DNA of 64,000 nucleotides, taken from the NCBI GenBank assembly GCA_938010045.1, contig CALLFZ010000036.1, positions 38,801-102,800 on the forward strand, read 5' to 3'. The DNA is from an uncultured bacterium (lineage in GTDB: Bacteria > Verrucomicrobiota > Kiritimatiellia > PWTM01). The translations under genes and the position numbers were made by a program. Positions 9,295-58,999 of this stretch are shown piece by piece; positions within the stretch are counted from its first letter, which is position 1; the number at the start of each line of letters is the position of its first letter. The notes under the pieces are model-generated. The model was not told where the DNA came from and ran no database searches. It worked only from the letters and a program-made list of their open reading frames with translations.

Positions 9295-9377
9295 CCGTTT
9301 ATCCTCCTTGTGACGACCCGCCTCGCGCACGCCGACGAGCCGACCTACAACTCACATGACACTCGGGCGCCCCACAA

Positions 9378-11892: not shown

Positions 11893-11926
11893 CTCGGAGT
11901 CTCTCCGCGGGCGCCCGGGCCGTCGC

Positions 11927-12655: not shown

Positions 12656-12796
12656 GTCCGAATCTCCGGATGTTCGTCGCTCACGCTATCAGGGCCATCG
12701 GCCGCGCGCAAATGTCGTGAGCGGCCGGACGCCCTCCTCGCGAGGACTACGCACGCCGCGCGTTCCTCGCTCGGCCAAGGAACGTCGCCGGCGGCT

Positions 12797-13891: not shown

Positions 13892-14317
13892 TGTTCCTTT
13901 GTCCTCCCGCTGGTGCCTCCGCCGCCCTCCACACCATCCGCGGCGAACCACACAGCTTCCAGAGTCAGTATGCGTGGGCATCGCGAGAAACTCAATCCGA
14001 CCGCAACGATGCGGAACCGTTGGCGCGGCGGAGAACGAGCGGCAAACAAAAACGTCGGTGACGGGTGGCGAACATCGTTGACCCCAACGCCCCCGCGCTA
14101 TACGCCGGTTGTTCCCGCCGATCCCCTAAAACACGAAATTTTCGATCCTTCAGGCCTCGACGCGGGTACAGGCTGCGGGAGATTAGCCATTCGCAGGCCT
14201 TGGATGGTCGGGTTCCGCCCCGACCCTACGGCCAATGCCTATGCTTCGGCAATTCGCGGACGGCGGGGACGCCGTCCCTCCAATGAAATCGCCAGCCTCT
14301 GTCCCGAGCCTCGCGCG

Positions 14318-14385
14318 TGTGCCTGTCCCCATGCTCTGTCCCCAGCCTCCGACCTTTTACGCCGGCCGTTCATGTGCCTGTCCCT
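14318..14385 (+). repeat. island B of the dispersed GTGCCTGTCCCCA repeat (2 copies plus a degenerate ctctgtcccca)
   Basis: tgtGCCTGTCCCCAtgctCTGTCCCCA at ~14318-14344 and catGTGCCTGTCCCTa at ~14371-14386. Confidence 0.65.
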
Positions 14386-14594
14386 ATCCTCAGTGGTAGG
14401 ACGCTGGCCGGGCTCGGGCGGTGAGCTGGCGGCGTGAAGTACCATGGGGTTGCCCAAGCCATCCGAGGCTTCGCGAACAAGATAAAGCGCCCTGACGTGC
14501 GTTCTGCCTGCATCGAAGACACAAAACGCCCCGATCAATGTTCAAATTTTTTGATGCAACCCCGAAGAAAGATCAGGTGATACAATCGTTAGAG

Positions 14595-15707
14595 CTAGCG
14601 ATAGGGCGAGGAGTGTACGCGGAAAAATCGGCTGGTCCATGCGCCAGCCGGGACTTCAACCGTGACGTTACGATCGGCCGCGATCAGGTTCGTCGCGCCC
14701 GCCCAAGGTGCCCAACTGACGGGCGAGATCAACGAGTCGGCCGTCTCGAGTGTTGACTGGATATTGCGAGGCACAAACCATGAGAGCTGCCACGCTGGAC
14801 CCGAGGTCGCGACCACCGCGATCATCGGAACGGGAAAAGCGACGGGCGCTGCGTTGAGGCCGGCCACCCACGACACCCACGCGCCCTGACCCGGCACGCC
14901 CCATCGCAACTGGCCCACGGCGGCGGCCACCGAATCCGTCACGGCGCTCCCTACACCTTCTTCGAACCGGAACCACGCGGCCAAGCCCATGCGCTCTTCC
15001 GGCGGCAGCACGCGCCACATCACGTTGCTGATCTCACCCGCTGCAAGCGCGCGTGTCCAGATGCGAAACTCATCCAGATCGCCGCGAAAGGACGGATATT
15101 CCGGCCCCGCATCATGTTTTTCGGCGCCGAGCACCAGAAACGGATCGGAGTCCGGCCATGCGGTTGTGCGTCCGATACGGTAGGCCAAATTCCCCGGCGG
15201 CCCCGCCCCGGCGGCGTCCAGCGCCCCGTCCACATGGATGCGCATTGCGCCGGTGGATTGCCGCACCAGCGCCACATGATGCCATGCGCCATCACCGACG
15301 TTGCGTCCGCCGACGATCGTGTGTCCCCAGCTTCCGTTGTGCGCCCCGAACGCCAGCACGCAGGTGGCTCCAACCCGCCCGATCGCCACGCCAAAATCGC
15401 CATAATCGCCACCGCCGTATACATCACGGTCCACAATAATGTTGCCGGTGATCCATCCGTCCCCATTGGCGCCGCTCTGCACGGTGCCAGCGTTGTTCGA
15501 CCACGACGCCCGCATCCAGAACTCGATCGTAAAGTCTCCGCCGACATTCACCGCCGGCGCCGTGACCAGCGGGATCTTCACTCGATCGGTTTGTCCCGTT
15601 CCAACACCATGAAACCGAACCGCGAACCGCGACCCCTGAGCGGCCGACGCGAAAGCCACCGCGGTCAGTGCAGACGCGCACACATACCAGATGCAGGTCA
15701 GCCTCAT
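14595..15707 (-). CDS. secreted LamG / concanavalin-A-like lectin-glucanase domain protein
   Basis: Signal peptide MRLTCIWYVCASALTAVAFASAAQ. Contains FTIEFWMRASW, AWHHVALV and DLDEFRIWTRAL, the pattern typical of Laminin_G_3. Confidence 0.6.
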   Translation of the reverse strand: MRLTCIWYVCASALTAVAFASAAQGSRFAVRFHGVGTGQTDRVKIPLVTAPAVNVGGDFTIEFWMRASWSNNAGTVQSGANGDGWITGNIIVDRDVYGGGDYGDFGVAIGRVGATCVLAFGAHNGSWGHTIVGGRNVGDGAWHHVALVRQSTGAMRIHVDGALDAAGAGPPGNLAYRIGRTTAWPDSDPFLVLGAEKHDAGPEYPSFRGDLDEFRIWTRALAAGEISNVMWRVLPPEERMGLAAWFRFEEGVGSAVTDSVAAAVGQLRWGVPGQGAWVSWVAGLNAAPVAFPVPMIAVVATSGPAWQLSWFVPRNIQSTLETADSLISPVSWAPWAGATNLIAADRNVTVEVPAGAWTSRFFRVHSSPYR

Positions 15708-16711
15708 CACCGCATGGATTCCGAGCCAAGATAGCCCGGCACCATCGGTGTTCAACGAGAGCGTGTCGTGCAGGCGGCTCGACTTACAACCATCTCCATC
15801 GCCGCATCACGTGCTCAGAATCACCCACACGCGCTCCAACGGATGGACCGCCAGACTCCTGAATGCCCGCGCACGGCGGTCATGCTGATGGCTTTGACGA
15901 TGCTCGTATCCCCGCGCCATCGGCAACGAGATTGGCCCATGGCGGCCGCGCACGGACGAACCCCACGACACGGTCGAGGACTGGCGCCGCAATTGGCCGG
16001 CATGCGAATCCGAAGACGGGGTGGCCGTCGGCCGGGTTTCGATCGCGCGCAAGGAGGGCACACACGGGTGGCGGATCACCATTGCGCCCGGCCGCATCGG
16101 GCTGGCGGACGGCGGCGTGGGCTGGTGATGGCGTTTCACGAAAAGAACGATGGACCTCCGCGGAGCTCAACGACCCGCTGCGTCTCGAGCCGGTCTTTCA
16201 GTTTGTGAACGGCGGAAAACTGGCAGGGTTGTGCGGAGGCCGCCGCACCGTCTCCGGCGGGATGGACGGCCCCGGATACGACGGATAGACAGCGTAGCCC
16301 CTGTGGCGACGTGGGCGACGAGGCGAGGCCCAGGTGTACCACGCCGCGAAGACCAACGACGATGATGACCTCATCCCCTTTCCGGAGGATTACCGGCACC
16401 GAGCCCCTGGCCGACTGCGTGTGTGGGCGTCCGATGTGAGCGGCTGTCTGGTGCGGGTGCTCGAACGTGGTGACCTGCGGTTCCGACGGACGCCGGCGAT
16501 CGGCATGGAGAGCGTACTCCGAGATATTCTACGTCGGCGCCGACGAGAGCTGGGCGCCGACCGAGGCGTGCTCATGGCATCTCACGAATCGACGGATTCG
16601 AGCGCCTGTGGCCCGCTCTCCCTCCAGCGGCTGCCCGCGAACTCCCACCGCACTGCCAGCGGCGGGGCGCGCCACACCCAACGCTGAACGCGACCTCGTC
16701 CGGGGCTTGCG

Positions 16712-17257
16712 TTATTGCCGTAGGTACGTGCCGACCAATTCCGCGGTGGCCAGCACATGTCCCTTCATCGCGGCCTCGAGCTGGGCCCGGTTTGCGCGCG
16801 GCGGCAGATCCAGCATCGTGTCCAACGCATAGAGGCGGAAGTGGTAATGGTGCACTCCGCTGCCGCGCGGAGGCATCGGACCGTTGTAGCCGAGCCGGGG
16901 CCAACTGTTCATGCCCTGCCGCGCGCCGCCGAGAGTGTCCACCGTGTCGTGTTTCGCGACGCCTTCGGGCAACTCGGTCACGTTCGATGGAATGTTCCAG
17001 ATCAGCCAGTGGTCCCAGACCTTGCCAGCTACGCGCACCGCATCTGGATCGTCGCAGATCAGCGCGTACGACTTCACGCCGGCCGGCGCACCAGTCCACG
17101 TGAGCGGCGGCGAGATGTCCGCGCCTTCACCGGTGTACTTCGCGGGTATCGCCTGATGTGGGCCGAAGGCCGTGCTGCTCAGTTTCATGACACCCTCCCC
17201 GGCACTCACCATGCCCAACACCACCGCCGCCCCAGCGGCGGCCCACCACCAACCCAT
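16712..17257 (-). CDS. YbhB/YbcL-family (PEBP/Raf-kinase-inhibitor-like) protein with signal peptide
   Basis: Start MGWWWAAAGAAVVLGMVSAGEG, then PPLTWTG, YALICDDPDA, WDHWLIWNIP and GVHHYHFRLYALD. The upstream 1.2 kb of the same open frame is Arg-rich noise. Confidence 0.75.
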   Translation of the reverse strand: MGWWWAAAGAAVVLGMVSAGEGVMKLSSTAFGPHQAIPAKYTGEGADISPPLTWTGAPAGVKSYALICDDPDAVRVAGKVWDHWLIWNIPSNVTELPEGVAKHDTVDTLGGARQGMNSWPRLGYNGPMPPRGSGVHHYHFRLYALDTMLDLPPRANRAQLEAAMKGHVLATAELVGTYLRQ

Positions 17258-17539
17258 CCGATGATGCTTCACCACACCAGCGAATATACCACGTCCGCGA
17301 CTCCGAGACGACCCCGCACGTGTCGCAGCAGCCAGCTCCATGATGGACAACAACGACCACCGTGCAAGGATCTTGGTGGGCCGAACGGCAGAGACCGACG
17401 CGGGGCCAGGAGAGATCCAAGGCCGTGGCCGTCTTCCGCGCGGCATTCTTCGCCATGGGCATTCGTGCTGCCCGCGCGCGGAGTCATCGGCTGTGCAATG
17501 GGACCTTGAACAATCGGCGATCGAAGGTATGTTGATCCC

Positions 17540-17896
17540 ATGGATCCACGCGGACTCAAGGTTCGGACGCCGCGGCGGGTGGTTGCCATCGCGATACTGG
17601 TGGTCGCCGCTGGCGCCGTGGACATAACCCGAGCGGTGGTTGTACCGGATGGCTGCGAATGCGCCACGACGACATGTTCGCCGCGCGAGGGGGGCCCCGC
17701 GTGCGGATGCCCGTGTGTTCCCGTCTGCCCCTGCGAGGCCGCCGGCCCAACACCTGGCCCGCTTATGTGCGTAGCTCCCGAAAGCGACGGAACAATGGTG
17801 AATTGGCCTGTGATCGCGATTTCCGAGCCTCAATCTTTGAAGCCTGCGAGCCGCACGGAGCGGCCGCCCGTGCCGCCTCCCATCCCGACCGTCTGA
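17540..17896 (+). CDS. candidate small membrane-anchored Cys-rich protein (hypothetical)
   Basis: N-terminus RRVVAIAILVVAAGAV (TM or signal segment), then the Cys cluster CECATTTCSPREGGPACGCPCVPVCPCE. GC3 is only moderate, so this may still be a chance ORF. Confidence 0.3.
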   Translation: MDPRGLKVRTPRRVVAIAILVVAAGAVDITRAVVVPDGCECATTTCSPREGGPACGCPCVPVCPCEAAGPTPGPLMCVAPESDGTMVNWPVIAISEPQSLKPASRTERPPVPPPIPTV

Positions 17897-17977
17897 CCCC
17901 TGTTGATGGAAGTGTCCTGTGGGACTTCCATCGGTTCGGTCGAGGACATTCACAACCTGCGGTAAGGAGTGTTCAAG

Positions 17978-18217
17978 ATGAAGACATTCTCGCGAAGATT
18001 CGCGATCACTACGGCCGCGCTGCTGATGGCGTTTCCGCTCGTGGCGGGCGCGGCCGAGGGGCGCCGTGCGGGATGCAAGGGCGCGGCCCAGGGCTCGAAG
18101 TGCGCGTGTTGTCAGTGCGATCCGTGCAACTGCAATCCGTGCACGTGCTGCGGCGGCAACCGCGGCGGCGAGACGGGTTCGGGTGGCTCGGCCTGCGGCG
18201 CCGTGAAGGCGAAGTAG
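17978..18217 (+). CDS. small secreted Cys-rich peptide (metallothionein-like or RiPP-like; hypothetical)
   Basis: AAGGAG sits 8 nt upstream of ATG (MKTFSRRFAITTAALLMAFPLVAGA, a signal peptide). The mature ~50 aa has 11 Cys (GCKGAAQGSKCACCQCDPCNCNPCTCCGG...SAC). GC3 is high, and a strong terminator follows directly. Confidence 0.5.
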   Translation: MKTFSRRFAITTAALLMAFPLVAGAAEGRRAGCKGAAQGSKCACCQCDPCNCNPCTCCGGNRGGETGSGGSACGAVKAK

Positions 18218-18239
18218 TCCGCATTCCACTGGACGGTCG

Positions 18240-18274
18240 GCCGCCCGGGGCCTGGGGCCCCGGGCGGCTTTTTT
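18240..18274 (+). terminator. rho-independent terminator
   Basis: gccgcccggggcc-tgg-ggccccgggcggc forms a 13-bp GC stem with a 3-nt loop, followed by TTTTTT. Confidence 0.7.
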
Positions 18275-18386
18275 CCGGTCGGAAACGCTTTGGATCAGCC
18301 ATCTATCGGAACGCAGCCGGGTCGAGACGGGGTCGGTTTTCCTCCCGACGGCGGCAAGAGATGTGGAACTTGTGCGAAACCTCCGG

Positions 18387-20066
18387 TTAGCGGCGGGCGG
18401 ACCGCCGACGTGCGCGCTCGAGCAGGTCCAACGCGTGCGCGAGCGCCGCCCGTGAGTCGCTGCCGCCGAGCATGCGCGCAAGTTCCTCCACTCGGCCGCG
18501 TTCGTCCAGCGCCACCACCTCGGTGAACGTACGGCCTTCGCGCACCACCTTGCGCACCGCGCGATGCGCCACGCCCCAGGCCGCTACCTGCGGTAGGTGC
18601 GTAATGCAAAGCACCTGATGCCGCTCCGCCACGCCCGCCAGTTCGCGCCCCACTGCGTGGCCCATCTCGCCGCCGAGGTTCGCATCAATCTCGTCGAACA
18701 CGAGCACGGGGATGCGGTCGTGCTCCGCGAGCACCGCCTTCAGTGCGAGCATGAGCCGCGAAATCTCGCCGCTCGAGGCGATCTGCCGCAGCGGCCGCAT
18801 CGGTTCCCCGACGTTCGGCGCAAAGCCGAACTCGACACGATCCATGCCATCCGCGCGCGGCTCCACCGGGAACAGTTCGGCCGCGAACGCGCTGCCGGGG
18901 AAGCCGAGAAACTCCAGTTCTCCGGTGACAGCCTCGGCCAGCTCCTCCGCGGCGGCGCGGCGACGCGCGCGCAGGACCTCGCCGCGCCGCTCGCGCTCGG
19001 TGCGCAGGCGCGCGAGCTCCTCGTCGAGCTCGGCGAGCCGTTGACCGCGCGATCGCAGCTCCTCCAGCCGCGTCCGCGCGCGTTCGAGCTCCGCGAGACA
19101 CGCCGCCACGGAACCGCCATACTTGCGCTGCATGCGCTGGTAGACCGCCAGCCGTCGGTCGAGCCATTCGAGCCGCGCCGGCTCGGCTTCGATGCCGCCC
19201 GCCTCGCGCAAAACCGCGATTCCAAGTTCCTGGACCGCCTTCGCCAGCCGCACCGCCTCATCGCGCCACTCCACCGCGGCGGGCAGCAGCCGGGCGAGTT
19301 CGTCGAGCGGCCGCTGAGCCTGAACCAGCGAGTTGTACGCGCAAGCGTCGCCCTCCGTCAGCGCGGCCGCAGCCTGGCTCGCAAGTTCGAGAATGCGCTG
19401 CGCATGCCCGAGCATTTCATGTTCCCGACGGATCTCCTCCTCCTCTCCCTCCCGCAGACTCGCCTCCTCAAGATCGCGGACTGTGAACTCCAGTAGATCT
19501 ATTTCGCGCGCAAATCGCTCGTCATCGCCCACCAACTCCGAACGTTGCGCCTCCAGCTCGAGGATTTGGGCGTGCACCTCCGCGTACGCGGCCCGCTCCG
19601 CCCCTGCGTGCGCTAACGCGTCCAACATCGCGAGCTGTTCGGCGGGGTGAAATAGTGACTGGTGGTCATGCGGACCGTGCAAGTCCACCAGCACATCGCC
19701 GATTCGAGCGAGCGTCTGCACTGTCACCGGGCTGTCGTTCACATGCGCCTGGCCGGTCCCGTTCGCGCGGACCGTCCGTCGGATGAGAAGTTGCCCGTCC
19801 TCGCACGGCGGAAGATCCAGCGTCGCAAGCACGGCATCCACGTCCCGTGAGTCCGCAAGCTCGAACAAGCCCTCCACCCAGCAGTGGTCCTCGCCCGCAC
19901 GAATGAGGGAGCGGTCGGCCCGGTCGCCGAGCAACAGTGCAAGCGCACCCACCAAGATGGATTTGCCCGCCCCGGTCTCCCCGGTGATGACATTCAGCCC
20001 CGGCTCGAACTCGGCGCGGACATCATCGGCGATGGCGAGGTGTCGAACGCGAAGCGATCTCAGCAT
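18387..20066 (-). CDS. recN: DNA repair protein RecN
   Basis: MLRSLRVRHLAIADDV...GLNVITGETGAGKSILVGAL (Walker A), a coiled-coil middle region, and a C-terminal SMC-type signature/Walker B region. Confidence 0.88.
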   Translation of the reverse strand: MLRSLRVRHLAIADDVRAEFEPGLNVITGETGAGKSILVGALALLLGDRADRSLIRAGEDHCWVEGLFELADSRDVDAVLATLDLPPCEDGQLLIRRTVRANGTGQAHVNDSPVTVQTLARIGDVLVDLHGPHDHQSLFHPAEQLAMLDALAHAGAERAAYAEVHAQILELEAQRSELVGDDERFAREIDLLEFTVRDLEEASLREGEEEEIRREHEMLGHAQRILELASQAAAALTEGDACAYNSLVQAQRPLDELARLLPAAVEWRDEAVRLAKAVQELGIAVLREAGGIEAEPARLEWLDRRLAVYQRMQRKYGGSVAACLAELERARTRLEELRSRGQRLAELDEELARLRTERERRGEVLRARRRAAAEELAEAVTGELEFLGFPGSAFAAELFPVEPRADGMDRVEFGFAPNVGEPMRPLRQIASSGEISRLMLALKAVLAEHDRIPVLVFDEIDANLGGEMGHAVGRELAGVAERHQVLCITHLPQVAAWGVAHRAVRKVVREGRTFTEVVALDERGRVEELARMLGGSDSRAALAHALDLLERARRRSARR

Positions 20067-37969: not shown

Positions 37970-40900
37970 TTATTGTGGCGAGCTCGTGGGACTTGGAGGG
38001 TCGGCTTCGCGCACAATGGAGCCGTTGGACTCGCTGACAACCAGGATGGAGAAACGCTGTGCGGTGGCGAGCGATGGATCCTGTGTTGAGGCATAGTCGA
38101 ATCGGCCCCGGAGGTCGGTATAGCCGTCTTTGAAGAACTTAACGGTGCCGTCGGCGAGACGGGTGTACACCTTCACATATGCTCCGGCGACAGGTGTGTT
38201 GGAATCCGCGCGGGTGAGCACAAGTTGCCCATACGTTTCCATGAGGTGGAGGCGGAGGGTATTCGCGTAGTAGGCCTGGGTTTGCCGCAGTGGACCTGCG
38301 ACGGCTTCGATCATGAGATCGAGGGAACGAAGGGCCTCAGGGATGTCAACCTGTACCGGGGAAGCGTCGGCTGGGACGTCTACGGGCATGGTGTGAGCCG
38401 GGCGGACGTGCGAGAAGTGGCGGGTGTCTTGGGTCATGAACGGGCTTCGGGAGAACAACAGCTCGAGGTCCATCGGATAGAAGTTGAGTGTGACGGACTT
38501 CAGGCGGCGGCCAGCGATCTCGATGCGGCGGCCGTTGAGGCGGAGGTCGAGGGAGGACTGTTCGGCCGCGAGCTGCTGCTGAACCAGGTCACGATTACGC
38601 GGGTCGGCCACGGTGGCTGCAGCGCCACCTTCGGCCTCGCGGATGTGGGCCAGCAGCGTCTGAACGCGGTTTCGCCAGCGAGGGACGGGGTGCTCGACGT
38701 AGTCGGAGAGGGCTCGGCGCGCCTCCTCGGGCCGGCCACGGGAAAGGGCGAGCCACGCCGTGAGGTAGTCGTACTGGAGACGCTCGGCGATACGGGCCCG
38801 ATCGGTTCGGGCAAGGAGGGCGATGCTCTCGGCGATGCGGTCCTGAAGCGCTAGATAGTAGGCTCCAGCGAGAAGGTCTTCATCGTCGGGAGCCGGTTTG
38901 TAGGCGAGGATGCGAAGAAACTGGGTCCATTGAGTCCTCAGAGCGGGGTTCTGGATGCGCGGTTCGCGTCCCATCGGATGGGCGCGGGCGTTGATGAGCG
39001 GTGAATATTCCAGGTGCTGGTAGAGGTGCCGTTCGACGGGGTTGATGCGGAGAATGGGGCATTCGAGCCAGAGTCCGCACTGGTTCGCGAATGGATGGCG
39101 GGCGAGAAATTGAGCGATGCGCGGCATGTCGTTGTGGAGGATGGAATAGGACCAGAGAGTGGCATCGAAGGCGCGGCGTCGCTCGAGGATGTCGAGGATA
39201 CGGCGATAGGCGTTCGCGTCGCGCAGTCGCCAGGCGATGTCCGCAAGGCGGATACGGTAGAGGTTCTCGCGCTCGAGGTAGGCGCAGACTTGGTCGAGAG
39301 TGGCGTTCTGGGAAATCTCGAACCATGAGGTTTGATCTGAGGGAGGCGGCTCGGCGACGACCTTGAAGTGGGCCGGCTCGGCGCGAGCGAGGACGCCCGC
39401 CTCGGAGGCAACCGTCGCAGGATGGTGGGCGAACTCGCCGGGAGCGGGGAAGTAAAAGAAGTACTCGATTGTGTCGGTTTGGTATGGTTCGAGTACTCGC
39501 GGGACGGGTTCAATGGGCAGCGGGGAGAGGGGGACGGCGCCAGCGGGGATTTGGAGGAGCACGGAGACGAAGTGTCGCTGGGCGCTGGGGTTGGTCAGCA
39601 CCACGCGGGCACCGTAGGGCACGCCGATCAGGAAGGGGCCGGTGACGTAGCGTTCGATGCGTTCCTCGCCCTCGTAACGCCAGCGGTTATCGGCCCGGAA
39701 GAAGTTCTGGGCCACGAGCAGCGGAGCCGGGCCGGGTGCTATGGGTGTGGGGCGCGTTTCACGCAGAAGCAGGATGACGGGTTGTTCGGAGCGTACGATG
39801 GTGCGGCCATCCTTGCGTTCGCGCGCAATCGGCGGCGCCTCGAATGGAAGGTCGAGAACCGCGAGCGCAAGGAGCATTTCGGTGGCGTTGGTCGTGGTGA
39901 AGAGGAGATCGGTCGAGAGGAACGGTGTCGGGTCGGGATGGGCGGCGTACTCGGCCCAGAAGCGGCCCGCGGGGACGAGGGAGGCGGTCTGCGCGGCCTG
40001 GGGCTGGCGGTAGTACGCTTGCTCAGCGAGCTCCTGGGGCATGTCCGGTGCACGGAAGAACGGCTGCGCCGCCTTTCGCTCGGCGGAGAGATCTTCAAGG
40101 AGGAACAAATCCGCATGGCTTCGACGGAGCGGTTCGTCCATTTCACGGTCGGCGGCCACTGCGCGCGCTCGCTGTTCAGCCATCGCGCGGGGGCCCGCGG
40201 CCTTGGGTACGGTCGCCGGGGCCGGTGGAGATGCGGCCAGCGCTCTGAGCGCGTCGGCATTGAGGGCCTCCGTCGCCGCTTCGACGTGCCGTTCACTCTC
40301 GGCGGCGCCGTCGGTCGCCGCGGTGGGTGAAAGGTCGCCAGCCAGAAAGAGAAACCGCCAGTAGAGGTCGGCTTTGGGGCGCGGAGTCTGAGCGGCCATG
40401 TCCGCAAGGTCGCGGGCAAGAGCCTCGCGTTGCGCCGCGGGCAAACGTCGAGCCAGCAGGGCCTTTTCGGCCGCGTTCAGTCGATCATAGTGCGCGGGTT
40501 CCAGCCAGCGGGTCAGGTCGCGGCCGAGCAACCATTCGTCTACGAAGGTCTTCTCACGCTTGTTGGCCAGATAGGGTGCAATCACGGCGTCGAAAAAGGG
40601 GCGATCCTTGTGGTACAGGAAGAGGTGCAGCTCGTGGCAGGCGAACCGCGAATAGAGTTCGCGTTTCTGATCTGGTGTGAGAGCGGGCCAGCGGGTGATG
40701 AACTCGAACTCCGGAAGCACGCTGTTCTTGGTGAGCGCGGAGTAGAAGGAAAAGACCTTCGGAATCGAGTCGGCCGCCGAGACCACGGCTCCCTCGCCGA
40801 CTTCGCGCGTTTCGCCCGGCAAAAGCGGCACGATGTCGAAATGCGGCGCATGGGGCGTGGCGGGGTCGAACGGCCGTTGGAGCGCGCGAGAGGCTGTCTG

Positions 40901-43900
40901 CAGCGGTGGATTGCCGATCGGGAGAATGCGCTCGACGGCGTGACATGGATCGATCGCAAGCACGCGCAGGAACGAGTAGCCGTGAAGATCGCGCCGCGGG
41001 ATCCGGATTCGTCCCTCCGCATCGGGACGAAGGTTCAGGAGGACGGTCGCGGGCCGCGCAAGGAAGTCGAGCGCCCAGGGAGACGCACGCCGTTGCCGGC
41101 CGGATTCCTGGGGCGAAGCAGTGTCGGCGGTGGCGCGGACACCGGCCGCGGGCCCGGCACCGGTGAGTGCCGCGGCGCGGCCGGCGAAGGGGCGCCCCTC
41201 CTGCAGGCGCTCGGCTTCGATGGAGGTCGTGCGCAGCGCCCAGGGATTCAGTAGAAGTGAGGGGCGCTCGGCCATGTTGCCGATGTGTTTGGGAGCACCG
41301 CGCCGGTCGAGCACGTAGCGGAACTCGTCGCCGAGCTCGCGTCCGGACTCGTAGAAGGTTCGCGACTCGGTCCATGTGCGGGCGCGCAGGTCGGGCCATA
41401 CGGCGCCGGCGGGCAGCGAGAAGAAGTCGTCCAGCACGTAACGGCCCGCCGCCACGTGCACGCGAACGTGGGGGGCACGGCTATTGAGGCGGAACACGAA
41501 GTGGTCGGCGTCTCCCGGCTCAGGCAGGAGCTGGAGAGGCTCCATCAGCGGCGTTTCGAGCGCGCGGCGAGCGGAGAGGAGGTAGCGCCCGAACGGATCG
41601 CCCCGGGTGACGCGGACGGGGATCTCCAGCTGACGGGACCGCACGAAGAGCGAGTAGTCGCCGGGTTCCAGGCCTCGGAGTTCGAGTGAGCCGTCCGCGA
41701 TGGCGAGAGCGGCAGAGCGGTCGCGCGTATAGCGCCCTTGGCGGACTTCGAGGAGGGAGAAGTCCGACAAGGCATCGGCGGCGTTGAGCCGCTCGAGCGG
41801 CAAGCGGAGCGGCCGCCCGGCTGTGCCGTGTAACGCAGAGGGCCACCAGCAGCGGTCACGCGGGGGCGTCCAGGTGAACACGGTCGGTTGCTGGCCGTGG
41901 AACTCTCTCCACTCGGCCTCCGAGCGTGGGTCTAGGTTCGGGGGCGGCGCGGCGTCGAGTGAGATCTGGACCTGCGAGATATCGGCCAGCGGGCCGAGGA
42001 CGGCCTGGCCGCGATCGTCCGTCCGCAGTGTGGTGTGGATCGGCTGGCGTGTCCACGGATGTTGGAACTGGCAGTGCAGCGGAACGCCCGCCAGGGGCTC
42101 GCCATTTAGACCGAGGACTTCCGCAACATAGCCCTCGGAGCCCAGCGTGAGCAGAACCTGTCGGGTCGCGAGGGTTCCGAGCAGAGGCGCGACCGGGAAT
42201 TCACGCGAGGAAGTCAGCTGGACCGGCGCTGCGCCAGCGGACATGGTCTTCACGCGAGCGGAGAGTTTGACCTCGATGGATCGGGGATGACGGGGCAGCG
42301 GCACCTCCACCCGGACTTCGCGGTCAAGGGCCAACTCGGGAGAGCGTATGTTGTGCTCGGTTCGGATGTCGCGGGTGTCGGTGACGGTCACGATGAGCAC
42401 GGCCTCTTCGAGGCTGAGCGAGGCCGGGTTCACGGGCTGGCCATGGAGGGTGATCAACGGGCGCAGCGCGAGTGTGGCATTGGCCCCGGGGTGCAGGGAT
42501 TCGGCCACGATCAGCGGACGCGCGTCAAGTTCGTAGGACTCGGCGAGGTGACGGAATCGGACCAGTGAGGCGAATCCCCCGGAGTGTACGACCATCGTGG
42601 CATCGCGATCGGCATCGGGGCGGAAGGGCACAAGAATGCGGCCTTCGGCATCGGGCTCGAATTCGCGGTTGTCGAGCCAGGCGCGCGCGTCGGGAACGGG
42701 CTTCCGCGCCTCATCGAGCACGCGGAACACGTGCCCAGCGGCCGAAAGGTCTTGCAACACCTCGAGCCGGCCCTTCTGCACGAAGGCGCGGCTGCTGCGG
42801 CCCTCGCCGATAAAGTCGATCACCCATACGCCGCGTCCTTGGAGCTCCGGGAAGTCGAATGTGCGTTCGAGGCGCAGATCCTTGGGCTCGCGGAACTCGA
42901 ATTTTTTCTCCGGGAACGAGGGCGCCAGACCGTCAAGATTGATGGCGAGGTTCAAGGGCCGGCGGGTGTCGCGATAGTAGTTCAGCGTATTGATTTCATA
43001 GATCTTCACGATGAGGGTCGGGACGTTTTTGACGAACAGTTTGAGGCGGACGGGCTCGTCGGGCAGGAAGACGGGCGGATTGTCCGGCGCGAAGTCGAGG
43101 TCCACGCGTTCCTTGATCGTGCGGTACTCTTCCGGCGAGATCAGAGCGGCCCACTGCTGCGGGTCTCCAATGCCATGGACGATCTTGGTCTCGGCGAAGA
43201 CGAGTCGGAGGAATTCATCACGGACCCACGGGCGGAACTCGTCGAAGTTCGGTGCATCGCGCAGGAGCCACATGAGGTAGTGGCGGACGATCGGCTCCTC
43301 AACGCGGATCGGCGGCAGGAGCAGCTCCGCGAAAGTCGCATCGAGACGGGCGAGATACTGCGGCTGGTGCAGGGATTCACGGATGGGCTGCGGCAGGTAG
43401 GGCACGTCGCGCGGCAGCTTCAGGTATTCGATGAACCGCTCGCGGCTGGGACGACCAACCTGCAGATCGTGGACAAGTCGATGATACAGCACATTGGCCT
43501 TGAGTGAATTATGGACTGGGTCCAGGCTGCGCACGTATGCCCAGACCCGGTCGAGGTAGGCCTCGCGCTGCTGGACATCAATTTCGAGGTCGGTCTCGCT
43601 GTCGGGGACGAGGCGCGAGAGGTAGAGCGAGACGAACGCGCGCTCGTTACGGAGCTCTGGACGAAGACGGAGGAGCTCATCGAGCTGTTCGAGCGTCAGT
43701 TGCTGGTGGATCGGCAGCTGTCCGAAGGGAGGACTGTCGGCGGTGGCGAGGTCCTCGGCGATGAGCGCGACGAGGTTGGGCAGGTCGGGGCGGCGGAGCC
43801 GCCGGAGCAGGTCGCGCCGCTGCTGCGGGTTCAGAGGAAGGCGGGCCACCGAGTAAAGACCGGCGTCGGTGATCGCGGAGAGATTGGCCCGTCCGTGTAG

Positions 43901-44344
43901 CGCGGATTCGAGGAAGCGCTGTCCGGATATGAGCGTTGGGTCGAGGCGGGTGGGCAGGTCGGGGCGACGCTCGGACAGGCGGCGGCTGTGGTCGAAGGTG
44001 AGGTCCAGTTCACGGCGGAGATAGTCGAGAGTGGCTTTTGGATCGCGAGCGTAGTCGAGCAGCGCCTGGCGGTGGCGCAGCTCGCGTGCGCCCGGCGGCT
44101 CGGCGCCTTTGCGGGCGCGAATCCAGTCGTCGAGGATCGTGCGGACCTCGTTGGCGCGGCCCAGATTCTGGGCGTGCAGGGCACGGAAAAAGTAGAAGTC
44201 GTCGGTGCCGGGCACGAGGTCCGCGAGCGCCGTCTCTCGGTTGGTGGAGAAAGCGAACTGCTCGAGGAACTTGAGGTTCTGGGCGCCGCCGAAGGTGGGG
44301 ATCAACAAAACGGGCAGCCAGACTCCGACGCGACAAATGTTCAT
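37970..44344 (-). CDS. giant (2124 aa) secreted protein of unknown function
   Basis: Signal peptide MNICRVGVWLPVLLIPTFGGAQN. One uninterrupted frame with high GC3. No P-loop, thioester (CxEQ) or other signature recognised. Confidence 0.6.
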   Translation of the reverse strand: MNICRVGVWLPVLLIPTFGGAQNLKFLEQFAFSTNRETALADLVPGTDDFYFFRALHAQNLGRANEVRTILDDWIRARKGAEPPGARELRHRQALLDYARDPKATLDYLRRELDLTFDHSRRLSERRPDLPTRLDPTLISGQRFLESALHGRANLSAITDAGLYSVARLPLNPQQRRDLLRRLRRPDLPNLVALIAEDLATADSPPFGQLPIHQQLTLEQLDELLRLRPELRNERAFVSLYLSRLVPDSETDLEIDVQQREAYLDRVWAYVRSLDPVHNSLKANVLYHRLVHDLQVGRPSRERFIEYLKLPRDVPYLPQPIRESLHQPQYLARLDATFAELLLPPIRVEEPIVRHYLMWLLRDAPNFDEFRPWVRDEFLRLVFAETKIVHGIGDPQQWAALISPEEYRTIKERVDLDFAPDNPPVFLPDEPVRLKLFVKNVPTLIVKIYEINTLNYYRDTRRPLNLAINLDGLAPSFPEKKFEFREPKDLRLERTFDFPELQGRGVWVIDFIGEGRSSRAFVQKGRLEVLQDLSAAGHVFRVLDEARKPVPDARAWLDNREFEPDAEGRILVPFRPDADRDATMVVHSGGFASLVRFRHLAESYELDARPLIVAESLHPGANATLALRPLITLHGQPVNPASLSLEEAVLIVTVTDTRDIRTEHNIRSPELALDREVRVEVPLPRHPRSIEVKLSARVKTMSAGAAPVQLTSSREFPVAPLLGTLATRQVLLTLGSEGYVAEVLGLNGEPLAGVPLHCQFQHPWTRQPIHTTLRTDDRGQAVLGPLADISQVQISLDAAPPPNLDPRSEAEWREFHGQQPTVFTWTPPRDRCWWPSALHGTAGRPLRLPLERLNAADALSDFSLLEVRQGRYTRDRSAALAIADGSLELRGLEPGDYSLFVRSRQLEIPVRVTRGDPFGRYLLSARRALETPLMEPLQLLPEPGDADHFVFRLNSRAPHVRVHVAAGRYVLDDFFSLPAGAVWPDLRARTWTESRTFYESGRELGDEFRYVLDRRGAPKHIGNMAERPSLLLNPWALRTTSIEAERLQEGRPFAGRAAALTGAGPAAGVRATADTASPQESGRQRRASPWALDFLARPATVLLNLRPDAEGRIRIPRRDLHGYSFLRVLAIDPCHAVERILPIGNPPLQTASRALQRPFDPATPHAPHFDIVPLLPGETREVGEGAVVSAADSIPKVFSFYSALTKNSVLPEFEFITRWPALTPDQKRELYSRFACHELHLFLYHKDRPFFDAVIAPYLANKREKTFVDEWLLGRDLTRWLEPAHYDRLNAAEKALLARRLPAAQREALARDLADMAAQTPRPKADLYWRFLFLAGDLSPTAATDGAAESERHVEAATEALNADALRALAASPPAPATVPKAAGPRAMAEQRARAVAADREMDEPLRRSHADLFLLEDLSAERKAAQPFFRAPDMPQELAEQAYYRQPQAAQTASLVPAGRFWAEYAAHPDPTPFLSTDLLFTTTNATEMLLALAVLDLPFEAPPIARERKDGRTIVRSEQPVILLLRETRPTPIAPGPAPLLVAQNFFRADNRWRYEGEERIERYVTGPFLIGVPYGARVVLTNPSAQRHFVSVLLQIPAGAVPLSPLPIEPVPRVLEPYQTDTIEYFFYFPAPGEFAHHPATVASEAGVLARAEPAHFKVVAEPPPSDQTSWFEISQNATLDQVCAYLERENLYRIRLADIAWRLRDANAYRRILDILERRRAFDATLWSYSILHNDMPRIAQFLARHPFANQCGLWLECPILRINPVERHLYQHLEYSPLINARAHPMGREPRIQNPALRTQWTQFLRILAYKPAPDDEDLLAGAYYLALQDRIAESIALLARTDRARIAERLQYDYLTAWLALSRGRPEEARRALSDYVEHPVPRWRNRVQTLLAHIREAEGGAAATVADPRNRDLVQQQLAAEQSSLDLRLNGRRIEIAGRRLKSVTLNFYPMDLELLFSRSPFMTQDTRHFSHVRPAHTMPVDVPADASPVQVDIPEALRSLDLMIEAVAGPLRQTQAYYANTLRLHLMETYGQLVLTRADSNTPVAGAYVKVYTRLADGTVKFFKDGYTDLRGRFDYASTQDPSLATAQRFSILVVSESNGSIVREADPPSPTSSPQ

Positions 44345-44641
44345 GGTCGGTTCTCCATCTCAGCGGGCCGCGATCGAGACCCGCCTCACCGAAGTATACG
44401 CCTTGGCCATCGGGTTTGTTCAGAGCGACGCGGCATGGTCGGCGGACGATGCCCGCGACGCCGACGATTCCGCCGCCTGCCCCACGGTGCTCGTTTCTGC
44501 TGTTTCACGGTGGTGCAGGGTGCAAATCGCGCCATACACTGTTTGACAAGCATTTCCACGCGCGTAGAGTGATGGGTCCGTTTTTCAGTGCCGCGTGCGC
44601 GGTGCGGGTGCGCGGCGGCCGTCGGGTCTGGGGGCGACAGC

Positions 44642-55476: not shown

Positions 55477-56697
55477 TCAACTGCGGCGAAGAGTCTCGAT
55501 GCAGACGGCGATGAGCGAGGTGTCCACCGAGTCCACCTCGCGGCGGGCGCCGATCCCGTTGGGGAAGGTCAGGCACAGATGTCCACCGAGGTGCTCGCGA
55601 AAAGTCTCGAGCCCGTCGAGCAGCGCGAGCCGACCATCCGGACGTCGTAGCTCCATCTCCTCGTGCCACAATCGGAAACCCGCCCGCCGCAGCGCGCGGA
55701 CCACTCGTCTTGCGTCACTCTCGCGGATCCAACCCTGGCGAGCGGCATAGAGCGTATCGAGCGCAATACCGGTGGCGACGGCGTGGCCGTGCCCAATCCG
55801 ATAGCCGCTGAGCGCCTCGAGCTGGTGCGCCGCCCAGTGGCCGAAATCGAGCGGTCGCGCCGCGCCGGTCTCGAACGGATCGCCGCCGGAGCGAATGTGG
55901 TCCAAGTGTAGCTCCGCGCAGCGGATGATCAGCTCCTCCATGACCGCGCCGTCGCGCCGGGGAATCGCTTCGGCATGGGCCTCCAAAAACTCGAAGAACG
56001 ACCGGTCGTTCAGGATCGCCACCTTGAAGGCCTCAGAGGTACCGCCGATCCAGTGCTCGTCGGGCAAGGTGTCGAGAAACTCAAAATCATTGATCACGGC
56101 GAACGGCGGCGCGAAGGTGCCGGCGGTGTTTTTGCCGCCATCGGTGTTGATGCCCGTCTTCACGCCGATGCCCGCGTCGTTCTGTGCAAGCACTGTGGTC
56201 GGCAGCCGGATCATCCGCAGACCGCGGTGCACCAGCGAGGCGCAGAAGCCAACCGCGTCGAGCACCGCGCCACCGCCGATCGCCGCGACGAACGAGTGCC
56301 GGCACAGCCCGCTGCGCGCGATCGAGTGCAGTACATCGCGGATGACCCCGAGGTCACATTTGATCGCTTCACCGCCCGGCACGACCTGGGGCGTCGCGAC
56401 GAAGCGTACGGCCGCCCGATTGCACTCGGCCCAGCCGGCGATCTCATCCAGCAGGCCGGGCCGGGCCGCGACGACGCCCGAGTCCACGAAGACGGCCATG
56501 CGGTGCCGCCGATCAGGCTCATGGCGCGTGATCGCCTCCACCAGCCGCCGGTTGTTCGGCCGGAACACGCCACGCGTGAACCACACCGGATACTCAAAGC
56601 GGACGACAATGTGCTGATCGAACCGCACCTCCCGCGGCGCCACCGGAGCCCCGGGGGCGAGGACCGATGCCGAATCAGGCGTTCGCTGCGTCGTCAT
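55477..56697 (-). CDS. 3-dehydroquinate-synthase-like sugar-phosphate cyclase family protein
   Basis: MTTQRTPDSASVLAP...AIGGGAVLDAVGFCASLVHRGLRMIRLPTTVLAQNDAGIGVKTGINTDGGKNTAGTFAPP...GHGHAVATGIALD (DHQS NAD/metal motifs). Confidence 0.7.
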   Translation of the reverse strand: MTTQRTPDSASVLAPGAPVAPREVRFDQHIVVRFEYPVWFTRGVFRPNNRRLVEAITRHEPDRRHRMAVFVDSGVVAARPGLLDEIAGWAECNRAAVRFVATPQVVPGGEAIKCDLGVIRDVLHSIARSGLCRHSFVAAIGGGAVLDAVGFCASLVHRGLRMIRLPTTVLAQNDAGIGVKTGINTDGGKNTAGTFAPPFAVINDFEFLDTLPDEHWIGGTSEAFKVAILNDRSFFEFLEAHAEAIPRRDGAVMEELIIRCAELHLDHIRSGGDPFETGAARPLDFGHWAAHQLEALSGYRIGHGHAVATGIALDTLYAARQGWIRESDARRVVRALRRAGFRLWHEEMELRRPDGRLALLDGLETFREHLGGHLCLTFPNGIGARREVDSVDTSLIAVCIETLRRS

Positions 56698-56738
56698 GTC
56701 CGAGTCTTCTTCCGGAGGACCCGGCGAATTGGACGCGC

Positions 56739-58052
56739 TTATTCGGCGACGTGATCGTCCAGCAGAGCCTCGACACCCCGTGCGAGGTCGAGTACATCGC
56801 GGACCCCGCAGGGCAATTCGAAGCTGGACGTCCATGCGGCGAGCCGCTCGCGTCCCGCGCGCCCGTGTGTACCTCGAATGATCGCTGGGTCCGTCGCAAT
56901 GCGGCCGAGCCAACCGCCTGCGAACAACTCGCAGGGGTCGTAGCCGGGCTTGGAGTGGATGTCCACGTGGTGGGCGAAGTCCGGCGCCTCGCGCGGCTCG
57001 TCCCACCATGGGTAGGCGAACCAGCGTCCCGGCTCCGCCACAACCACAAGGTCCGGTCCCAACGGCTCGTCCATGCACAGCTCGCGCTGCGCGTCGGGAT
57101 CGAGCACCAGACCGATGCCCTCGAGGCCGTCGAGCAGACGCCGCACCGCCCGCACGTCCTCCTCCCCGCGCGCGTAGATGAGCGCGATTTCGTGATCCAC
57201 CAGCGCCACGGCGCGGCTCTCGTACATATTCGGGTAGAGGCGGCCCTTGACCGAGCGCACGCGGAACAGCCCTTCGCGGCGCAGTTCACGAGGAAGGTAC
57301 ACCGGCGGGGCGGTCACCGGCGCAATCGCGTAGTCGCCAAACACGATCACCTCGGCATCCAGATCCCGCGCTGTGCTCCAAATCGTACCGACGAGCGCGA
57401 GCGCCTCCTCGAGCGCCGCATGCGCCTCGGGCGAATCGGGTCCAAATCGCTGCAGGTCGTAGTCGAGGTGCGGCAAATACACCAGCAACAGATCCGGCGA
57501 CAGCTCCTCATCCTTGATCACGGCGCAGGCGGCCTCAGCAATCCAGCGGCTGGACTCGATCGAGGCACGCGGTCCCCAGTAGTGGTGCAGCGGGAACGGC
57601 CGGCCGAGCGCGTTGCGCAACCGCGCGTATAGGTCCTCCGGCACCGAATGACAGTGCGAAACAAGGCCGCCATGGTGACGGTGCACCGGCCACGGGGAGA
57701 GCAACACATCCACCTCCTCCCCGAGGCTGTGCTGCCAAAACAGCATCCCCACGCGCTGTCCCGCCGCCCGGAACTGGCTCCAGATGCGCCGCCCGTACAC
57801 GATCGCCGCCGATTGCTCCCAGAAAAAGACCCGTCCGAGCCGCCGCGCGAAAAAGCCGTTGGCGGTGACGCCGTGAAAACACGGATGCGCTGCGGTCCGG
57901 AACGACGCCTGCACCGGACACGTCAGCGCCGGGAACACGGTTTCGAGCGGGTGGAACGTCAGACCGTATCGTTCCACGAGATCCGGCGCCGAACGCACCA
58001 GCTCCCAGCCGAGCCCGGCCATCTGCACGATCACCAGACGGTGTTGAATCAT
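56739..58052 (-). CDS. alkaline-phosphatase-superfamily (type I phosphodiesterase/nucleotide pyrophosphatase-like) protein
   Basis: MIQHRLVIVQMAGLGWEL...FPALTCPVQASFRTAAHPCFHGVTANGF (Thr nucleophile T-x-P...TG..P..HG pattern); LLLVYLPHLDYDLQRFGP. Confidence 0.6.
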   Translation of the reverse strand: MIQHRLVIVQMAGLGWELVRSAPDLVERYGLTFHPLETVFPALTCPVQASFRTAAHPCFHGVTANGFFARRLGRVFFWEQSAAIVYGRRIWSQFRAAGQRVGMLFWQHSLGEEVDVLLSPWPVHRHHGGLVSHCHSVPEDLYARLRNALGRPFPLHHYWGPRASIESSRWIAEAACAVIKDEELSPDLLLVYLPHLDYDLQRFGPDSPEAHAALEEALALVGTIWSTARDLDAEVIVFGDYAIAPVTAPPVYLPRELRREGLFRVRSVKGRLYPNMYESRAVALVDHEIALIYARGEEDVRAVRRLLDGLEGIGLVLDPDAQRELCMDEPLGPDLVVVAEPGRWFAYPWWDEPREAPDFAHHVDIHSKPGYDPCELFAGGWLGRIATDPAIIRGTHGRAGRERLAAWTSSFELPCGVRDVLDLARGVEALLDDHVAE

Positions 58053-58228
58053 TCGATGCGCGCCCCGCCACCGTCGCCACGTCGCAGCCTACACGATTCG
58101 CCCGCAGGGAGCACGCCGGCCGGCCCCGACGCCGACGGCCGCCTCCAAAGCTTGGACGCACATCGCACCGGTCCGTCCCATCCTTGGACACCGCCAGCGG
58201 CACGACATCTCCACCCAGCCGCCACACC

Positions 58229-58999
58229 TCACACGCGGTGACGGATCACACGGCCGAGCGTGCGGTCGTAGATCCACACCACCCACCGCAGCGGCGAGTA
58301 GATCAGACGCAGCCGGATCACCGCGATGAACATCTCCAGGCCGGTTCTGCCGACCCGAACATGCGACCCGCCGATATCGCGCCAGACGGTTGGCACCTCG
58401 ACGATACGGTGGCCATGGCGGCGCAACTGAAACAGCAGATCCACATCAAACGCCCACTGCGTAATGCCCAGATACGGCAACACGTCCTCGACGGCGCGCC
58501 GTGTGAGCACCTTCGCACCGCACTGCGTATCCGTCGTGTTCAGACGGAACAGCAGCCGAACCAGCGCATTAAAGACGCGCGACGCGACGCGGCGCGTCCA
58601 CGGCTGCCGCAGGATGTCCGAACGGGGGTCCCACCGATTCGCGATCACGGCGCTGGCGCCGTCAAAGTGCTTCAACAAGTCCTCAAACGCCTCGGGCGGT
58701 GTCGCGCCGTCGGCGTCGACGAATCCGATCCGCTCGCCGCGCGCGGCGCGAAACCCGAGGATCACCGCACCGCCCTTGCCGATGGGCTGGGGTTCCTCGA
58801 TCACCCGAACGCCGGACCACCCATCGGCGTAGCGGCGGGCCACCTCAATCGTGTTGTCGGTGGAACCGTTGACGACAATGATGAACTCCACCGCCTCGCC
58901 GTACCGTTCGCGGAAATAGGGAAGATACACATCCAGCATCCGGCCGAGCCGGTGCTCCTCGTTGCGCGCGGGCACGACAATGGACAGTTGAACAGCCAT
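58229..58999 (-). CDS. GT2 polyprenyl-phosphate sugar transferase (Dpm1/ArnC-like)
   Basis: MAVQLSIVVPARNEEHRL...EFIIVVNGSTDNT...GFVDADGATPPE (DxD)...QCGAKVL. Confidence 0.7.
   Translation of the reverse strand: MAVQLSIVVPARNEEHRLGRMLDVYLPYFRERYGEAVEFIIVVNGSTDNTIEVARRYADGWSGVRVIEEPQPIGKGGAVILGFRAARGERIGFVDADGATPPEAFEDLLKHFDGASAVIANRWDPRSDILRQPWTRRVASRVFNALVRLLFRLNTTDTQCGAKVLTRRAVEDVLPYLGITQWAFDVDLLFQLRRHGHRIVEVPTVWRDIGGSHVRVGRTGLEMFIAVIRLRLIYSPLRWVVWIYDRTLGRVIRHRV

Follow-up and report, generated by a model that had tools for sequence, protein, structure and literature searches.

A gene publicly named 3-dehydroquinate synthase, as are its relatives, raises the question of what it does in a Kiritimatiellae-like MAG where it lies beside an alkaline phosphatase (AP)-family gene and a family 2 glycosyltransferase (GT2) gene. 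The three could belong to aromatic amino acid biosynthesis, to the known ebo cluster, or, as the original prediction proposed, to an undescribed cyclitol-glycolipid route in which GT2 takes the place of missing ebo partners. We analyzed the 64-kb stretch of DNA containing them (here referred to as the window). Rechecking of the open reading frames returned the gene trio, its minus-strand order and the 41-nt gap between the AP-family and DHQS-like genes just as first described, with the following features.

58229-58999, minus strand: GT2 glycosyltransferase, 256 aa (PF00535, E = 8.6e-29)
58053-58228, minus strand: intergenic spacer between GT2 and eboF, 177 nt, of a length that varies among relatives
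56739-58052, minus strand: predicted eboF orthologue, an AP-superfamily NPP/PhnA-like phosphoesterase, 437 aa (PF01663, E = 6.5e-37)
56698-56738, minus strand: spacer between eboF and eboD, 41 nt
55477-56697, minus strand: predicted eboD orthologue, DHQS-like, 406 aa (PF01761 and PF24621)

Separate gene calls on contigs of the same organism (L007/L008) gave identical protein lengths of 256, 437, and 406 aa. The neighbors of the AP-DHQS pair in the window are SMC, GT2, a secreted Laminin_G/MG2 protein, and ilvC, and no shikimate gene is nearby, in line with the earlier remark that the aroB-like gene stands apart from that pathway. On L007, the far side of the locus carries an amylase gene and a DUF1573 gene. 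Promoter, terminator, and Rfam scans of 54.8 to 59.4 kb gave no meaningful match, and no terminator-like site was found in the spacer between eboF and eboD. The gap between these two genes is 41 nt in the window and 40, 52, 56, and 14 nt in the related loci L001, L089, L090, and L002, respectively, and in L091 the gene calls overlap; the short spacing is thus kept in relatives despite differing genomic contexts. The two genes form a tightly spaced and probably cotranscribed pair.

The DHQS-like protein passes the curated model NF004852 (518 bits; cutoff, 333) and fails the AroB model TIGR01357 (206 bits; cutoff, 305). EboD proteins from the canonical clusters of Aureibacter and Mycetohabitans score 531 and 561 on NF004852 and 237 and 218 on TIGR01357, respectively, whereas true AroB controls show the opposite pattern (354 and 350 on TIGR01357; 183 and 212 on NF004852). 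The DHQS-like protein is 43 to 50% identical to the EboD proteins of Aureibacter, Gloeothece, and Mycetohabitans, compared with about 31 to 33% for AroB or sedoheptulose-7-P cyclases. It keeps every column that is at least 95% invariant across approximately 55 EboD sequences. An active-site comparison with DHQS, proposed with the original prediction, was made between these family invariants and a segment of Vibrio DHQS: 27 EboD-invariant columns differ from the latter, and the EboD-specific H264 (Lys in DHQS), D284 (Asn in DHQS), and R281 stand in for the Lys, Asn, Arg register of DHQS, such that positions binding the carboxylate of DAHP are replaced. The fold and the NAD+- and metal-binding residues (D174, K180, N190, E222, K225, H287, H291, and H303) are shared with AroB. 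A neighbor-joining tree (392 columns, distance method, without bootstrap) places the protein inside a PVC EboD clade with the canonical-cluster EboD proteins as sister, apart from AroB and the sedoheptulose-7-P cyclases; the clustering with AroB that would have spoken against the prediction did not appear. A PDB sequence search with the window EboD returned DHQS proteins as best matches and no EboD structure. On these sequence grounds we regard the protein as an EboD orthologue and not AroB, which takes the first half of the predicted EboD/EboF pairing from resemblance to orthology and agrees with the claim that the locus does not serve aromatic amino acid biosynthesis. By orthology at 43 to 50% identity, it would be an NAD+- and metal-dependent sugar-phosphate cyclase; in the account of Tanoeyadi et al. 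(2024) given in PMC12904256, a study that the thallusin preprint (bioRxiv 10.64898/2026.05.21.724671) cites as well, EboD orthologues turn mannose-6-P into DEI.

The assignment of the AP-family gene, whose family call held up in the HMM search (PF01663), rests on comparison with EboF of two canonical clusters, to which tblastn aligned it at E values of 1.5e-73 and 1.7e-73, with 34 to 35% identity over 378 to 421 residues, near full length. Across both EboF subfamilies, 58 columns are invariant, and so are the catalytic positions T44, N65, D197, Q201, D286, H287, D364, H366, and H396 (alignment A1). The window subfamily is nevertheless distinct from canonical EboF, being 32 to 35% identical to it and lacking two insertions near residues 380 to 390. 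Further, the same subfamily is encoded within ebo clusters in other genomes, being found in 11 BCFDE, 11 FDE, and 3 CFDE arrangements among 44 loci. The AlphaFold model (pLDDT, 90.1; pTM, 0.91) retrieved phosphonoacetate hydrolase (1ei6 and 3szy), Xac NPP, and ENPP6/5/1 as best Foldseek matches (E = 3e-19 to 1e-15; TM, about 0.6 to 0.7), and a PDB sequence search gave no match. The AP-family protein is, judging from these similarities, an EboF orthologue, as the pairing required, and it may act as an AP-superfamily phosphoesterase with a Thr nucleophile that hydrolyzes an undefined phosphoester or pyrophosphate in the same pathway as EboD.

The subfamilies of this pair occur elsewhere in an eboB-C-F-D-E cluster present in many Verrucomicrobia, Planctomycetota, and Lentisphaerae and in some Desulfobacterota. 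A genome scan that covered clades other than that of the window (best match, 54% identical) recovered 70 PVC-type F loci; the 44 with full flanks include the arrangements BCFDE (11), FDE (11), CFDE (3), FD (3), CF (3), and F alone (10), and none of the 44 has eboA. At L009, the E gene scores 374 bits on NF035939 (TIM_EboE), enough to pass this model. Among Kiritimatiellae-type genomes, D-E without F is found in L093 and L174 and E alone in L092 and L175; L060, of a sister lineage, keeps D-E. Chance comes nowhere near accounting for the AP-DHQS adjacency: F and D lie side by side at 40 of the 65 related genome loci with enough downstream sequence. Such break-up has precedents: fragmentation of the ebo cluster has already been reported in Planctomycetota, and scattered yet complete core sets, which the thallusin preprint defines as eboB, eboC, eboE, and eboF, occur in Planctomycetota and several Verrucomicrobiota orders (bioRxiv 10.64898/2026.05.21.724671).

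The window departs from these clusters in what surrounds the pair. The UbiA prenyltransferase (EboC), TatD (EboB), and TIM-barrel (EboE) partners had been described as missing, and our searches agree: homologues of these and of EboA were found nowhere in the 64-kb window, either by tblastn with reference Ebo proteins or by HMMs built from 5 to 39 members, PVC-type proteins included, at E ≤ 10. The set that marks a complete ebo pathway, eboB, eboC, and eboE with eboF, is therefore not present within the window, and we class the locus as a fragment rather than as a complete cluster. Likewise, the 10 kb on either side of the pair in L001, L002, L089, L090, and L091 (57 to 78% identity) yielded no eboB, eboC, or eboE. 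In L002, a fragment of a UbiA gene lies 6 kb away from the pair; as a candidate EboC it was rejected, having no match to the EboC HMM at E ≤ 10. A protein search with Kiritimatiellae EboE returned 120 matches of 52 to 100% identity, none of which was traceable to the sample or contigs of the window.

Compared with the canonical eboABCDEF cluster (Bacteroidota, Cyanobacteria, and eustigmatophyte plastids; EDB in Pseudomonas fluorescens), the locus shares predicted EboD and EboF orthologues, with the match to NF004852, the EboD-invariant residues, PF01663, and the EboF catalytic positions, whereas it has only F followed by D and no eboA, eboB, eboC, or eboE in 64 kb. With the PVC-type eboB-C-F-D-E cluster (L009, L011, L013, L015, L031, L055, and others) it shares the EboF and EboD subfamilies (45 to 56% identity), the F-then-D order, the close spacing, and the absence of eboA; unlike in that cluster, the pair has no B and C next to it on the upstream side and no E on the downstream side, both in the window and in the rest of its clade (L001, L002, and L089 to L091). 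Since the same F-D subfamily sits in full eboB-C-F-D-E clusters of many PVC genomes, the absence of the partners here looks like fragmentation and not like a new pathway design. We consider it quite probable that the eboF-eboD pair is a fragment of the PVC-type cluster, without eboA, and that GT2 is an independent neighbor, so that the locus would be a fairly ordinary part of ebo, a known cyclitol/meroterpenoid cluster.

Under this fragment reading, the cyclitol product of EboD would feed the ebo pathway, provided that eboB, eboC, and eboE are encoded elsewhere in the genome. From the scattering of ebo genes in this lineage we think it likely that they are, though with somewhat less assurance than we place in the fragment reading itself. 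The pathway with EboB, EboC, and EboE has been linked to saccharoquinoline/thallusin-type meroterpenoids, with EboC as a farnesyltransferase acting on hydroxyquinolines (bioRxiv 10.64898/2026.05.21.724671). The Planctomycetota thallusin producers of that study resemble the present case in being PVC members with unclustered ebo genes and no eboA, whereas they have all core genes and demonstrated thallusin production and the present case is a 64-kb stretch of a Kiritimatiellae-like MAG. Against the fragment reading stands the lack of eboB, eboC, and eboE both in the window and within 10 kb in the five relatives, together with the EboE search that led to no match from the window's sample or contigs, and a lineage with real loss of these genes is possible. 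Kiritimatiellae are mostly anaerobes, and the late steps of thallusin formation are thought to be oxidative, which also counts against it.

Such a loss is the basis of the best-surviving alternative, namely, that this Kiritimatiellae clade has lost eboB, eboC, and eboE and that EboF and EboD alone form an autonomous two-enzyme cyclitol module. Six genomes with 57 to 100% identity have the tight F-D pair in four contexts, with no other ebo genes within 10 kb, D-E survives in the sister lineage L060, and partial ebo sets are known elsewhere, as in Nostoc PCC 7524, whose set consists of eboD (PMC5133447). However, related genomes in which F or E stands by itself, or in which D-E or C-F forms a locus, show that ebo genes are commonly dispersed rather than lost, as do the scattered but complete core sets of Planctomycetota and several Verrucomicrobiota orders, and we consider an autonomous module unlikely. 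In such a module, DEI or a simple derivative would have another purpose, for example that of a solute, a signaling molecule, or an intermediate of catabolism, and EboF would act directly before or after the cyclase. If the module were real, EboF would work directly with the cyclase, by supplying its sugar-phosphate substrate or by acting on a phosphorylated partner; genetics would then have a first way into the function of EboF, and the product derived from DEI would presumably differ from thallusin and saccharoquinoline.

Much less of the three-gene proposal survives, according to which GT2, EboF, and EboD form one operon for a lipid-linked or glycosylated cyclitol, with GT2 in place of the UbiA, TatD, and TIM-barrel partners. 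The three genes do lie on the same strand in adjacent order in the window and in L001 and L091, no terminator consensus was found in the 177-nt gap, and GT2 resembles Dpm1, ArnC, and GtrB, as had been stated. It has a GT-A catalytic domain, and its closest PDB sequence matches are the Pyrococcus Dol-P-Man synthase (5mlz), ArnC, and GtrB; the similarity is low, though (5mlz, 9hwj, and 5ekp; E = 6.5e-9 to 2.5e-7), and GT2 falls far under the cutoffs of all NCBIfam equivalogs. The neighborhood data argue against the operon from both sides. Orthologues of GT2 were collected from 76 metagenome loci, and at none of these do they neighbor EboF or EboD; counting only loci that extend 1.5 kb or more downstream, F or D is carried by 0 of 26. 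The three closest orthologues (68 to 73% identity) keep the divergent SMC neighbor and lack F-D. Conversely, an orthologous GT2 is absent from all 70 other PVC-type F loci (0/70), among which only two distant GT2 genes (24 to 30% identity) were found 4 to 5 kb from F. GT2 lies next to F-D only in the window and in the nearest relatives, L001 and L091 (76 to 78% EboD identity); the F-D relatives L089, L090, and L002 (57 to 68% identity) are without GT2. The length of the GT2-eboF spacer varies as well (window, 177 nt; L001, 79 nt; L091, 340 nt), and in the window this spacer shows neither an Rfam match nor a promoter or terminator consensus beyond what chance would give. Gene-neighborhood conservation, suggested as a check at the outset, thus upholds the F-D adjacency and fails for the co-occurrence of GT2 with it. 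We reject GT2 as a pathway member and judge it to be outside the ebo module and merely adjacent; the operon model is largely refuted and retains a very small probability. GT2 would instead be an independent, membrane-associated polyprenyl-phosphate-sugar-synthase-like enzyme belonging to the SMC neighborhood.

Weakest of all, and barely credible, is the view that the DHQS-like gene encodes the housekeeping AroB of this organism, the 3-dehydroquinate synthase of the shikimate pathway: its public annotation, the naming of NF004852 itself as 3-dehydroquinate synthase, and the failure to find a second aroB in the window speak for it, and we reject it on the TIGR01357 score and the AroB controls, the match of canonical-cluster EboD to NF004852, the altered DAHP-carboxylate-binding positions, the neighbor-joining tree, the activity reported for EboD, and the presence of EboD together with a canonical aroB on one Phycisphaerae contig (L045).

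The survey maps the organization of ebo genes in the PVC group, with its B-C-F-D-E order and no eboA, together with its modes of break-up. F-D is the most persistent ebo adjacency in it, and this persistence hints that, in function, EboF stands nearest to the cyclase step. Should the present clade truly be without eboB, eboC, and eboE, it would offer a natural minimal system for the study of EboF. The main value of the finding is corrective: a gene annotated everywhere as 3-dehydroquinate synthase appears to be an EboD-type cyclitol synthase, and as such it should not be counted as shikimate capacity in Kiritimatiellae MAGs.

The three genes lie in a row on the minus strand, as the original prediction described; coordinates, Pfam matches and gene calls agree, with identical gene boundaries in two further assemblies of this organism (L007 and L008).

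37970-44359, minus strand: 2130-aa ORF with a signal-peptide-like N-terminus
55477-56697, minus strand: DHQS-like gene (eboD), 406 aa; PF01761 and PF24621
56739-58052, minus strand: AP-superfamily gene (eboF), 437 aa; PF01663, E 6.5e-37
58229-58999, minus strand: glycosyltransferase (GT2) gene, 256 aa; PF00535, E 8.6e-29
about 59.1-62.7 kb, plus strand: SMC gene, flanking the trio divergently

The spacers are 177 nt (GT2 to eboF) and 41 nt (eboF to eboD). Also flanking the trio are a gene for a convergent secreted Laminin_G/MG2 protein, ilvC, a URO-D-like gene and pntAB. The window has a G+C content of ~68%, and its nearest relatives are Kiritimatiellae MAGs. The 2130-aa ORF has no Pfam match and coincides with a strong positive plus-strand GC skew over 38-46 kb.

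The DHQS-like protein scored 518 bits with NF004852 (cutoff, 333) and 206 bits with the AroB equivalog model TIGR01357 (cutoff, 305). Canonical EboD proteins from the annotated plasmid clusters of Aureibacter tunicatorum (eboA-B-C-D-E-F; L005) and Mycetohabitans endofungorum (eboD-E-C-A-B-F; L006) behaved likewise (NF004852, 531 and 561; TIGR01357, 237 and 218), and two true AroB controls, one encoded beside shikimate kinase and the other on the EboD-bearing Phycisphaerae contig L045, scored the opposite way (TIGR01357, 354 and 350; NF004852, 183 and 212). A plasmid search with the window protein gave bimodal identities of 42-50% to the same family, whose inspected members adjoin other ebo genes, versus ~31% to aroB/sedoheptulose-7-P cyclases. 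All columns at least 95% invariant among ~55 EboD proteins are kept in the window protein, and 27 of these positions differ from Vibrio DHQS (e.g., H264, Lys in DHQS; D284, Asn in DHQS; and R281, a shifted Arg). A neighbor-joining tree placed it inside the Planctomycetes-Verrucomicrobia-type (PVC) EboD clade, with canonical-cluster EboD proteins as sister and AroB outside. Both genes occur on L045, direct evidence that they are not interchangeable:

273-1445, minus strand: true AroB (TIGR01357, 354 bits)
9282-10454, plus strand: EboD, adjoining EboF and EboE

Judged by model scores, residues and tree, the window gene is eboD and not aroB, in keeping with the proposal that it lies outside aromatic amino acid biosynthesis; a housekeeping AroB is highly improbable.

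The AP-family protein aligns over nearly its full length with EboF of both canonical clusters (34-35% identity; E ~1e-73), and 58 columns are invariant among these three proteins and 16 close homologues, including T44, N65, D197, Q201, D286-H287, D364, H366 and H396. By sequence comparison the gene is eboF, and the suggested EboF/EboD pairing is upheld. No solved structure related by sequence was found; the closest folds to a confident structure model (pLDDT 90; pTM 0.91) are phosphonoacetate hydrolase and NPP-type phosphodiesterases, a likeness that places EboF in the Thr-nucleophile branch of the AP superfamily. At residue 12, the PVC subfamily invariably has Ala where canonical EboF has Val (alignments A1 and A2); by motif position, this may be the site of the N-terminal metal-binding Asp of NPP/PhnA enzymes. 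Q201 is invariant where NPPs carry the His of the D-x-x-x-H motif, and the PF01663 match begins only at profile position 29. Canonical EboF (Aureibacter, Mycetohabitans) differs in having two ~11-residue insertions that are missing from PVC-type EboF (A1 columns about 420-445; window residues about 380-390), and model confidence is lowest in that loop (pLDDT <50 at residues 373-382).

An EboF-alignment scan of GTDB species genomes, a set that does not include the window's clade, yielded 80 loci, annotated by tblastn with reference Ebo proteins. The window's EboF subfamily was found in 70, from Verrucomicrobia, Chthoniobacterales, Lentisphaerae/Victivallales, Planctomycetota/Phycisphaerae, Kiritimatiellae and a few Desulfobacterota. 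EboD directly follows EboF in 40 of the 65 loci with sufficient sequence. Among the 44 PVC-type F loci with full flanks, arrangements were B-C-F-D-E (11), F-D-E (11), F alone (10) and C-F-D-E, F-D, C-F and others (3 each); eboA was never seen. In one PVC-type cluster the E gene passes the curated EboE model NF035939 (374 bits; cutoff, 250), and the C gene is EboC/SCO3242-like, falling below the curated EboC cutoff with an equal score on the SCO3242 prenyltransferase model. Given the subfamily's membership in PVC ebo clusters, the window pair is the F-D core of a genuine variant of the ebo cluster, and the locus is a fragment of a PVC-type ebo cluster, a known kind of system.

The eboB-eboC-eboF-eboD-eboE layout without eboA (L009, L011, L013, L015, L021, L024, L029, L031, L043, L049, L052, L055 and L057; ~7-14 kb in the locus) is a distinct one that recurs in MAGs of Verrucomicrobia, Lentisphaerae and Planctomycetota, and it extends to Desulfobacterota MAGs (L024, and L031 and L048, where the order is C-B-F-D). 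Canonical clusters of one cyanobacterium, one Bacteroidota member and three Betaproteobacteria are flanked by a conserved pair encoding a hypothetical protein of ~600-675 aa and a ferritin-like protein (L004 9840-13121, L005 2263-5323, L006 4632-7714, L083 1763-4793 and L088 1549-4546), whereas PVC-type loci do not have it. The pair is unmentioned in PMC5133447 and in bioRxiv 10.64898/2026.05.21.724671, the latter stating that the oxidative step lacks a candidate enzyme.

All five relatives with 57-78% EboD identity (L001, L091, L089, L090 and L002) keep F-D, 14-56 nt apart or as overlapping calls, in four different neighborhoods; no eboA, B, C or E was found within 10 kb of these pairs, including with family HMMs at a threshold of E<=10. 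In the tree, the sister lineage L060 still has D-E. In the window, 44 kb separate F-D from a block (5854-12685, minus strand) that encodes a FAD-oxidoreductase/F5_F8-type-C/HEAT protein, a GFO_IDH_MocA oxidoreductase and a 3-keto-disaccharide hydrolase. L091, the relative at 76% identity, has this block 2-9 kb downstream of its F-D pair (12862-20051), a difference that points to local rearrangement. Inositol dehydrogenases are among the enzymes of the GFO/IDH/MocA family.

Related genomes also carry D-E without F (L093 and L174) or E alone (L092 and L175), and mobile-element genes occupy two of the break points:

L174, 9105-9575: Y1 transposase between eboD and eboE
L175, 501-1919: phage-type integrase beside the lone eboE

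These dispersed loci agree with the published scattering of ebo genes in Planctomycetota, where eboA is absent, and the presence of core ebo genes in several Verrucomicrobiota orders has also been reported (bioRxiv 10.64898/2026.05.21.724671). Unlike the window, gut/rumen Kiritimatiellae-type genomes have EboF alone or eboC-eboF (L061, L066, L068, L069-L077, L082 and L085), with no EboD within 10 kb of EboF. L070 and L073 are contigs with PVC-type EboF whose records name Agathobacter rectalis and Muribaculaceae; mis-binning of Kiritimatiellae contigs from gut metagenomes probably explains these labels.

The label "Dpm1-like" is fair for GT2: among solved structures it is closest to Dol-P-Man synthase, ArnC and GtrB, although it passes no NCBIfam equivalog model. 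A cyclitol glycolipid dependent on this enzyme would draw on its position beside F-D, which is limited to the window, L001 and L091 and lies each time between SMC and F (spacers of 177, 79 and 340 nt). Against this, searching metagenomes for GT2 orthologues yielded 76 loci (47 at >=50% identity, 26 of these with >=1.5 kb of downstream sequence), and none had EboF/EboD within 7 kb. The three closest orthologues (68-73% identity) keep the divergent SMC neighbor; in L100, GT2 is directly followed by a convergent 1129-aa ORF. On these grounds, GT2 is part of the SMC neighborhood and F-D a recent arrival beside it. The glycolipid is very unlikely, and of the original interpretation the ebo F-D pair stands while the sugar transferase partner is not supported.

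Beyond the orthology, fold, conserved residues and neighborhood statistics established here, we infer that EboD would cyclize mannose-6-P to the cyclitol DEI and that EboF would serve the same pathway by hydrolyzing a phosphoester or pyrophosphate bond. If eboB, C and E are not elsewhere in the genome, F-D might be an autonomous module making some DEI-derived product, which we consider a minor possibility. [quoted passage not shown]
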